Below are positions 35,345-35,511 of a stretch of 60,185 nucleotides of DNA, piece by piece. Both the position numbers and the translations under genes were made by a program. The stretch is from a virus (Duplodnaviria > Caudoviricetes): the IMG/VR virus record IMGVR_UViG_3300036766_000363, positions 1 to 60,185 of that record. The stretch is one strand, 5' to 3'. Below the pieces are notes generated by a model. It did no database searches and had not been told where the DNA came from. It saw nothing but the letters and a program-made list of their open reading frames with translations. Every line of letters begins with the position of its first letter. Position 1 is the stretch's first letter.

Positions 35345-35511
35345 AAGGAACTGCGGCAGCATCGTCAGAGATGCCCGGTGATGGCTCGGTGATAGGTAAA
35401 GCGGTCTAACTGAGCCAGGCTTAGTTTCAGCCTGAAATGAAACAACGGGTGCCGACCGCCTAATAACATGGCACAAGCCGGGGTGAGAAGGAACCCGGCC
35501 CGCAGTTCTTT
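35345..35511 (+). ncRNA. Unclassified multi-stem RNA with predicted kissing loop
   Basis: Closing stem GAACTGCGG/CCGCAGTTC; five internal hairpins; loops GCGGTC and GACCGC are complementary. Confidence 0.6.

Follow-up and report, generated by a model that had tools for sequence, protein, structure and literature searches.

A two-domain structured RNA with a tRNA-shaped module upstream of two small genes in a phage accessory cassette

Introduction

What is a structured RNA doing on the opposite strand of a phage tail module, and is it a molecule in its own right or part of the message of the two small genes that follow it? The question is raised by a 60,185-bp virus record from IMG/VR with an estimated completeness of 74%, which was analysed over its whole length and is referred to here as the window. 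A 355-nt non-coding stretch of the window (35174–35528) holds the RNA. It is bordered by the beginning of a minus-strand 707-aa gene on one side and by two small plus-strand ORFs on the other. A preliminary description of this DNA had proposed an unclassified structured RNA with a kissing loop, and had named an enlarged tRNA mimic, a decoy or a ribozyme as possible identities.

Accessory (“moron”) cassettes are the usual seat of anti-defence and host-manipulation functions in phages. Phage 5′ leaders contain structured translational operators, such as the leader pseudoknot of T4 gene 32, and ribosomal-protein leaders are comparable structures. A 2023 catalogue lists 8,495 candidate structured RNAs (csRNAs) from IMG/VR, whose functions are unassigned in the accessible part of that report (PMC10690425). 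Like the RNA described here the csRNAs are intergenic, conserved and covarying, and according to the same part of the report some are tRNA-like and some lie no more than 25 nt upstream of genes; the present RNA may already be among them. A limited literature search found no description of the arrangement reported below, which is not to claim that it is absent from print.

Results

Layout of the cassette

The RNA belongs to a cassette of approximately 800 bp that lies antisense to the tail genes and contains a promoter-like site, a tRNA-like domain (domain 1), a 167-nt domain (domain 2), an SD sequence and two overlapping small ORFs (Table 1). The location within a tail module, as first proposed, is borne out by the structure predicted for the 707-aa neighbour. 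The AF2 model of this protein is all-beta (pLDDT 81) and its best Foldseek matches are podovirus tail complexes, namely the Pa223 tail (E 2.7e-12), P22 gp10 and the T7 gp12 nozzle, so the tail label is right and the protein folds like podovirus tail nozzle or hub proteins. A PDB sequence search with both flanking proteins gave nothing useful, and a PHROGs search with ten further ORFs gave only a methyltransferase and a metallophosphoesterase.

Table 1. Positions of the cassette features and of the two flanking genes in the window; L020 is the homologous locus described in the text
Feature	Position	Strand	Remarks
Promoter-like site TTGCAT-N17-TAAGGT	35206..35234	+	Kept in L020 as TTGCAT-N17-TATGGT; putative promoter
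Domain 1, tRNA-shaped fold within helix GCAGGA/UCCUGC	35247..35339	+	Outer helix, acceptor stem and D-stem kept in L020
Domain 2, 167-nt RNA	35345..35511	+	Fold z −4.25; 47 modelled pairs kept in window and L020
Loop–loop pairing GCGGUC (H2 loop)/GACCGC (H4 loop)	35401–35406/35454–35459	+	Perfect 6-bp complement
Pyrimidine tract UUCUUUCUUU, then SD GGAGGAAG (SD 35518–35525), before ATG 35529	35506..35528	+	
ORF1, 50 aa, Cys/His-rich	35529..35681	+	68% identical in L020
ORF2, 62 aa	35678..35866	+	62-aa L020 homologue in same frame
Tail nozzle/hub-like gene, 707 aa	33050..35173	−	AF2 model and Foldseek
460-aa gene, CBM_4_9 match	35971..37353	−	Pfam

The claim that the RNA has its own promoter survives in part. 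A scan for sigma-70 consensus sites returned 0 sites, the sequence TTGCAT-N17-TAAGGT being too weak for it, but that sequence is conserved in the homologous locus with a single substitution in its second element. The only site found by a terminator scan of 34900–36300 is on the minus strand, so there is no plus-strand terminator between the RNA and the ORF, and the two share a transcription unit. In L020 an insertion of 52 nt (679–730 of that contig, minus strand), absent from the window, separates the promoter-like site from domain 1, so the leader varies at its 5′ end.

Other features of the region were recorded in passing. Two genes resembling HNH_3-type homing endonucleases (31234–31776 and 37326–37754, both on the minus strand; PHROG 826, E 1e-50 to 1e-53; Pfam HNH_3) flank the cassette among tail and head genes, and some homologues of the 707-aa protein (P0003 and P0038) are approximately 970–985 aa long and contain an intein splicing domain, PF14890. 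The window also contains a 19-nt inverted repeat that is 95% complementary with a 56-nt spacer (56784–56877), and a perfect hairpin (19249–19281), of 14 bp around a 5-nt loop, that lies within or close to the methyltransferase gene.

Architecture of domain 2

Every helix named in the preliminary description was found in its place within 35345–35511. The domain is closed by P1, in which AAGGAACTGCGG (35345–35356) pairs with CCGCAGTTCTTT (35500–35511) to give 12 bp including one G-U. Inside P1 the first element is H1 (35359–35374), a 5-bp stem of GCATC/GATGC (35359–35363/35370–35374) with the invariant loop GUCAGA. It is followed by H2 (35383–35416), formed by GGCTCGGT/ACTGAGCC (35383–35390/35409–35416), in which 7 bp are conserved and an 18-nt loop holds GCGGUC. 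Next come S1, AGGCT/AGCCT (35417–35421/35429–35433), then H4 (35449–35474), whose stem GTGCC/GGCAC (35449–35453/35470–35474) carries a loop that starts with GACCGC, and finally H5 (35477–35499), with the stem GCCGGG/CCCGGC (35477–35482/35494–35499). Two helices can be added to the earlier list: a 3-bp helix CCG/CGG (35375–35377/35446–35448) that encloses H2 and the next element, and S2, GTTTC/GAAAC (35424–35428/35439–35443), which overlaps S1 and is the helix chosen by both RNAfold and RNAalifold. As we read the two sequences, S1 and S2 are compatible with each other and could form an H-type pseudoknot (S1 5 bp, L1 2 nt, S2 5 bp, L3 GAAAU); the L020 versions are GGGC/GUCC for S1 and CCCC/GGGG for S2.

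The kissing-loop complementarity was also found as described, with the two loop sequences being exact complements. None of the 6 pairs varies in L020 and there is no covariation there, while approximately 0.035 such complements would be expected by chance by our own arithmetic for loops of 18 and 16 nt. The pairing is a candidate contact, either within one molecule or between molecules, that is neither proven nor refuted. Domain 2 is a compact structure in which a 12-bp helix closes off five hairpins and probably two pseudoknots.

Compared with shuffled sequences the plus-strand fold (−70.2 kcal/mol) has a z-score of −4.25, with 0 of 200 shuffles as good, while the minus strand gives −2.76, with 1 of 200 as good. 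The inverted repeat of P1 taken alone is not unusual, as the window contains 26 such repeats (≥12 nt, within 250 nt), and P1 stands 25th among the 25 listed. The real support for the RNA is its conservation and covariation in L020.

Domain 1 is a tRNA-shaped module

Upstream of domain 2, a conserved 6-bp helix GCAGGA/UCCUGC (35247–35252/35334–35339) encloses a tRNA-shaped fold (35257–35331) with a 7-bp acceptor-like stem, CCAGCAU/AUGUUGG, and D-like, anticodon-like and T-like arms. Each of the two domains is independently closed, and a conserved 5-nt linker, GAAC(U/C), lies between them.

The earlier mention of a preceding tRNA-like element holds in part. The minimum free energy structure is a perfect cloverleaf in the window, where the folding energy is ordinary (z −0.29/0.05), and is not a cloverleaf in L020. 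ARAGORN made no tRNA call at 35257–35331 under default settings; with the relaxed option -ps80 it called tRNA-Leu(taa) there and left the homologous L020 site uncalled. The Rfam tRNA model RF00005 had no match at E ≤ 10 in searches of 651 and 106 nt. Reading the two sequences by eye, the anticodon loops differ (ACUUAAG in the window, UUUCUAA in L020) and the T-stem is broken in L020. The T-like loop is AUGGCAA, there is no canonical T-loop and no CCA is encoded. Domain 1 is a structural module, probably derived from a tRNA, and not a decoding tRNA. A genuine tRNA-Gln(CUG) is present elsewhere in the window (4903–4976, plus strand, 67.5 bits), and its sequence is unrelated to the tRNA-like domain.

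By eye, the conserved sequence (A)ACCUUC in the T-like arm (35305–35322) is complementary over 7 bp to the H2 loop of L020, GAAGGUU, and over 6 bp with one bulge to the H2 loop of the window, GAuAGGU (35391–35400). This complementarity could be an inter-domain contact or a coincidence.

Conservation and covariation in a homologous locus

Thirty homologues of the 707-aa protein were aligned, and with this alignment (A1) 2 viral, 21 metagenome and 4 genome loci were fetched. L020, a 1,454-bp metagenome contig with a fragment of a 707-aa homologue that is 90% identical, is the only one of these that aligns to the non-coding region (nhmmer E 2.2e-91; blastn 70.7% identity over 703 nt). Divergence between the two sequences at neutral sites is nearly saturated, with 55 of 116 4-fold degenerate sites of the adjacent gene identical (47%) and third codon positions at 57%. 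Against this background 75 of 95 aligned bases are identical in domain 1 and 125 of 170 in domain 2, an identity of 74–79%. Both ORFs fall below these values (107 of 153 nucleotides for ORF1, 123 of 179 for ORF2). Two runs are invariant, one of 34 nt extending from the 5′ strand of P1 through H1 and one of 22 nt.

The substitutions respect the fold. Paired columns differ at 14 of 94 positions and unpaired columns at 37 of 87, and all 47 modelled pairs are standard in both sequences. Five pairs have compensatory double changes, two of them in H2 and three in S2 (GUUUC/GAAAC to CCCC/GGGG), and four have changed on one side only by way of G-U. When partners were slid by 1–3 columns as a control only 35–43% of cells paired; a two-row shuffle control cannot fall below about 15 of 500. 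The structured plus-strand RNA of the preliminary description is therefore upheld, by conservation above neutral as well as by the z-score, the retained pairs and the double changes.

The same alignment identifies the strand. Four G-U pairs would become A-C on the minus strand, leaving 45 of 47 pairs canonical there compared to 47 of 47 on the plus strand in each sequence. These pairs fit only the plus strand, so the plus strand is the one under selection. A 109-aa antisense ORF in the window has no counterpart in L020 and the region contains indels of 1, 2 and 10 nt, so the RNA region is not coding.

A third, partial variant was found in run X2, from a different study, as a 228-nt contig with a depth of 2.8 that covers 35277–35485. 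This variant shows 3 substitutions, lacks 4 nt in the H4 loop region and has an H5 loop that is longer and different before it rejoins the window sequence at CCCGG, so the H5 stem is kept and its loop is variable in all three versions. All three runs considered are DNA; of the other two, X1 may be the source and X3 covers only 35902–36000, and no weight is given to parts that a run leaves uncovered. The evidence for the RNA thus comes from two complete sequences and a single partial variant.

An accessory insertion between two tail genes

In 13 of the 15 distinct related loci that have upstream sequence, the homologues of the 460-aa and 707-aa genes are direct neighbours of the same orientation, the 460-aa one first, with alignments 59–251 nt apart. 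The window and L020 carry the cassette at this junction in the opposite orientation. We built a covariance model of domain 2 (R1) and searched 74 sources (659,945 bases), in which it matched the window and L020 and nothing else. R1 had no match in the whole records of two related phages, of which one is 100% complete, or in 26 loci around the homologous tail gene. Related loci keep the tail genes adjacent and lack R1, which marks the cassette as a narrowly distributed accessory insertion. This, together with the position of the RNA at the 5′ end of an mRNA, is what the preliminary description missed. The cassette boundaries show no repeat signature.

Wider searches added no further copies. A blastn search of GenBank phages with window 35000–36000 gave no match, and the viral contigs gave none with the 707-aa protein alone, 0 in an exact 39-mer scan and 0 with the H1 pattern. 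The kissing-loop pattern occurred in 46 stretches of viral contigs, none confirmed by nhmmer or R1, and the domain 1 pattern in three, without an R1 match; both sets were attributed to chance. One R1 match in four MAG genomes (E 3.1e-4, 22.4 bits) was rejected as false, being inside an 810-aa ORF with the core poorly aligned.

Other, unrelated inserts occupy the same junction in two related loci, L003 (2193–3476, with 334-aa and 89-aa ORFs) and L004 (2281–2601, with a 106-aa ORF), and a Pfam search assigned these ORFs to no family. The junction between the 460-aa and 707-aa genes looks like a hot spot for accessory genes.

The RNA leads into a two-gene operon

The small ORFs said to follow the RNA are both there and both conserved. 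P1 ends at 35511, which leaves 6 nt between the RNA and the SD of an operon whose two genes are conserved. Whatever else it may be, the RNA is therefore the 5′ leader of an mRNA. The promoter-like site, both domains, the SD and both ORFs are conserved together in L020. ORF1 differs there by an in-frame 3-codon indel, the indels in both ORFs being in-frame, and the ORF2 start overlaps the ORF1 stop (GTGA in the window, ATGA in L020).

When the 5′ strand of P1 is left out, CUUUCUU pairs with GAGGAAG of the SD over 7 bp in the window, and a similar hairpin can be drawn in L020, where a comparable pyrimidine tract and SD are present. This anti-SD pairing overlaps the last 4 nt of P1, so that only 3–4 bp compete. 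With P1 formed the SD bases are unpaired with probabilities of 0.24–0.79.

Neither ORF has a word-index homologue or a Pfam or PHROG family, and for ORF2 the Atlas search also returned nothing. For ORF1 HMMER gave three weak matches, all Cys-rich repeat proteins without a confident Pfam family, and the Atlas gave only weak leads, to zinc-ribbon-like clusters at 0.83–0.90. A scan of viral contigs with the ORF1 alignment gave 69 pattern matches and no relative. The Cys/His-rich motif of ORF1 recurs 4–5 times in proteins P0121–P0123 (318–437 aa, unknown family; E 7e-9 to 7e-4), a pattern that suggests a small metal-binding repeat unit.

Comparison with known RNA families

With Rfam 15 at the gathering threshold, the whole window gave only the tRNA-Gln, at 4903–4973. 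Relaxing the cutoff to E ≤ 10 for stretches of 651, 106 and 193 nt gave chance-level matches only (S15, MIAT, LPR69, sR17 and COG3860, E 0.9–8). The earlier failure to match a riboswitch, ribozyme or tmRNA thus extends to a covariance-model check against Rfam 15, which assigned this RNA to no family, not even tRNA. None of the identities first suggested is supported by the tests that were run, the decoy included. For an enlarged tRNA mimic, the 167-nt domain is without tRNA features, and neither the tRNA covariance model nor ARAGORN at default settings accepts the upstream element; for a ribozyme, there is no match to a self-cleaving or self-splicing family. The RNA is a candidate for an unclassified family of unusual composite design.

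Several known classes were considered individually. For tmRNA, ARAGORN -m found nothing in the window at default or at -ps70, its -ps70 calls in L020 are implausible, and there is no Rfam match. A retron msr/msd was rejected as there is no adjacent reverse transcriptase and the downstream ORFs of 50 and 62 aa have no Pfam or PHROG family, and a MITE or DNA inverted-repeat element on account of the strand-asymmetric G-U helices, the single copy and the lack of a flanking duplication. Group I intron, GIR1, hammerhead, T-box, RNase P RNA, retron and type III toxin–antitoxin RNA were dropped on topology or context, using consensus features from general knowledge.

Domain 1 has a likeness to Y RNA. 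In the accessible part of PMC4201824, YrlA Y RNAs are described as having a tRNA-like module with a conserved T-arm and a GNCGAAN0-1G motif, as continuing their acceptor-like stem into a helix of the flanks, and as being encoded by phages in some cases. The present RNA is unlike them in having no canonical T-arm and no Rfam match, and in being followed by a second large domain and an mRNA. PF05731 (TROVE/Ro60) is absent from the 60-kb record, which is 74% complete, in a search whose controls matched in 2 of 14 genomes, and the motif was not found by eye in the window or L020, where the nearest sequence, UGCGAAC in the linker, does not fit.

Domain 2 shares features with the packaging RNA of phi29, which is also a phage RNA of 120–170 nt with a helix between its 5′ and 3′ ends and two complementary loops able to kiss between molecules, and both phages are podovirus-like. 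The loop complementarity of phi29 pRNA is four bases, whereas here it is six, and here the RNA sits in an accessory insert and is followed by an SD and ORFs. There is no match to the pRNA covariance model (RF00044), and R1 is absent from the related phage records and the 26 tail-gene loci. As the RNA lies in an accessory insert that related phages do not have, an essential role in packaging like that of pRNA is unlikely.

Discussion

The RNA shares a transcription unit with the small ORFs and abuts their SD, and it should therefore be read first as a cis-acting leader. We propose that positions 35240–35528 form a structured 5′ leader with a cis-acting role in the small-ORF operon, whose transcription would run antisense to the tail genes, and give this reading a probability of roughly 40%. 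The leader of this “moron”-like operon would consist of two independently closed domains, a tRNA-derived fold and then the 167-nt domain, and would set the stability of the mRNA or the initiation of translation at the two small ORFs that begin beyond it. Binding of a factor would be the most plausible trigger, with the zinc-ribbon-like product of ORF1, a host protein or a small ligand as candidates, and the pyrimidine tract UUCUUUCUUU, shared by the foot of P1 and the anti-SD hairpin, would be the point at which structure and initiation are coupled. The promoter, the cis action and the effector are parts of this proposal that we infer from the arrangement of the cassette. A 12-bp P1 is far more stable than the P1 helices that typically switch. 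With only 3–4 bp in competition the two structures may also coexist, so a classical P1 riboswitch is unconvincing; an operator that binds a factor, or a stabilising structure at the 5′ end, would be the better fit. Similar in kind are the T4 gene 32 leader pseudoknot and the ribosomal-protein leaders, as pseudoknotted structures directly upstream of an SD with a candidate protein effector encoded downstream. The present leader is unlike such operators in its much larger size, with two domains that together come to approximately 265 nt, in its tRNA-shaped module and in having no relation to them in sequence or family. Further points count against the cis-acting leader: the putative promoter is missed by the consensus scan, the RNA surpasses in conservation the ORFs it would control, stable ncRNAs typically consist of closed domains that come after a tRNA-like processing signal, and the comparison comprises two full sequences and one 228-nt partial variant.

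The second and third of these points lead to the strongest competitor, which we regard as a real though lesser possibility. Here the RNA would be a stable ncRNA that is excised from the leader and acts in trans, with the tRNA-like domain serving as a handle for processing of the RNase P or RNase Z type. The 167-nt domain, with the 12-bp helix protecting both ends, would then act on a host or phage partner, and might associate with itself through GCGGUC/GACCGC. Domain 1 does have a 7-bp acceptor-like stem, and such a stem is given as a major RNase P determinant in the accessible part of PMC4201824. The independent closure of the two domains on either side of a conserved linker, the conservation of the RNA beyond that of the ORFs and the fully conserved kissing loops also speak for this reading. 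The conserved helix GCAGGA/UCCUGC is difficult to reconcile with it, however, as it pairs the would-be leader with the trailer and would be split by processing. Moreover the T-arm is lost in L020, there is no canonical T-loop or encoded CCA, and the SD follows P1 after only 6 nt.

A more far-reaching version, to which we attach a small but not negligible likelihood, is a new composite class of phage RNA in which the tRNA-derived module is joined to a doubly pseudoknotted five-hairpin module. Such an RNA would be released and act in trans, with the small proteins as its partners. It could self-assemble into a particle through its kissing loops, or could, by mimicry, capture a host factor that binds tRNA or processes RNA.

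Two further explanations are improbable, and about equally so. One places the function on the minus strand or in antisense pairing, as a processing or attenuation structure in the mRNA of the tail operon or as a plus-strand transcript that pairs with the 707-aa nozzle gene and tunes it. The cassette does separate co-oriented tail genes, which would need read-through or re-initiation, and the minus strand also folds better than its shuffles (z −2.76). Yet the plus strand has the better z-score and is the only one that the four G-U pairs fit, related phages manage without the insert, and it is on the plus strand that the conserved ORFs and SD follow. The other is a ribozyme or small-molecule riboswitch of a new class that governs the small-ORF operon, in favour of which several helices meet in a compact junction, with conserved loops and probable pseudoknots, immediately before an SD. 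The architecture recalls the five-hairpin FMN and lysine aptamers in its closing helix, five-hairpin junction and candidate loop–loop pairing just upstream of the SD. It is unlike them in lacking a covariance-model match, in its phage accessory context and in its 12-bp P1, which is not switch-like; the 193-nt search gave no Rfam match at E ≤ 10, the downstream genes offer no metabolic clue and no cleavage-site motif was recognised. Finally, a decaying relic without present RNA function, whether a captured tRNA gene with adjacent sequence or a MITE-like element, would account for a degenerate tRNA-like element that differs between the two phages and for an inverted repeat that is unremarkable by itself, but is very improbable given conservation far above neutral, compensatory changes, strand-specific G-U pairs, a single copy in the window and in all fetched loci, and no flanking repeat signature.

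With two phages and a partial variant, the RNA is a well supported but narrowly distributed candidate, a target for probing and not yet the discovery of a mechanism. The best conserved part of the cassette is a 265-nt two-domain RNA without a family, and not a protein. If this RNA regulates the two tiny proteins or is their partner, the cassette would represent a new type of compact RNA–protein module. Should the tRNA-shaped domain serve as a handle for processing or recruitment, it would be a case of tRNA mimicry by a bacterial virus outside tmRNA and Y RNAs.
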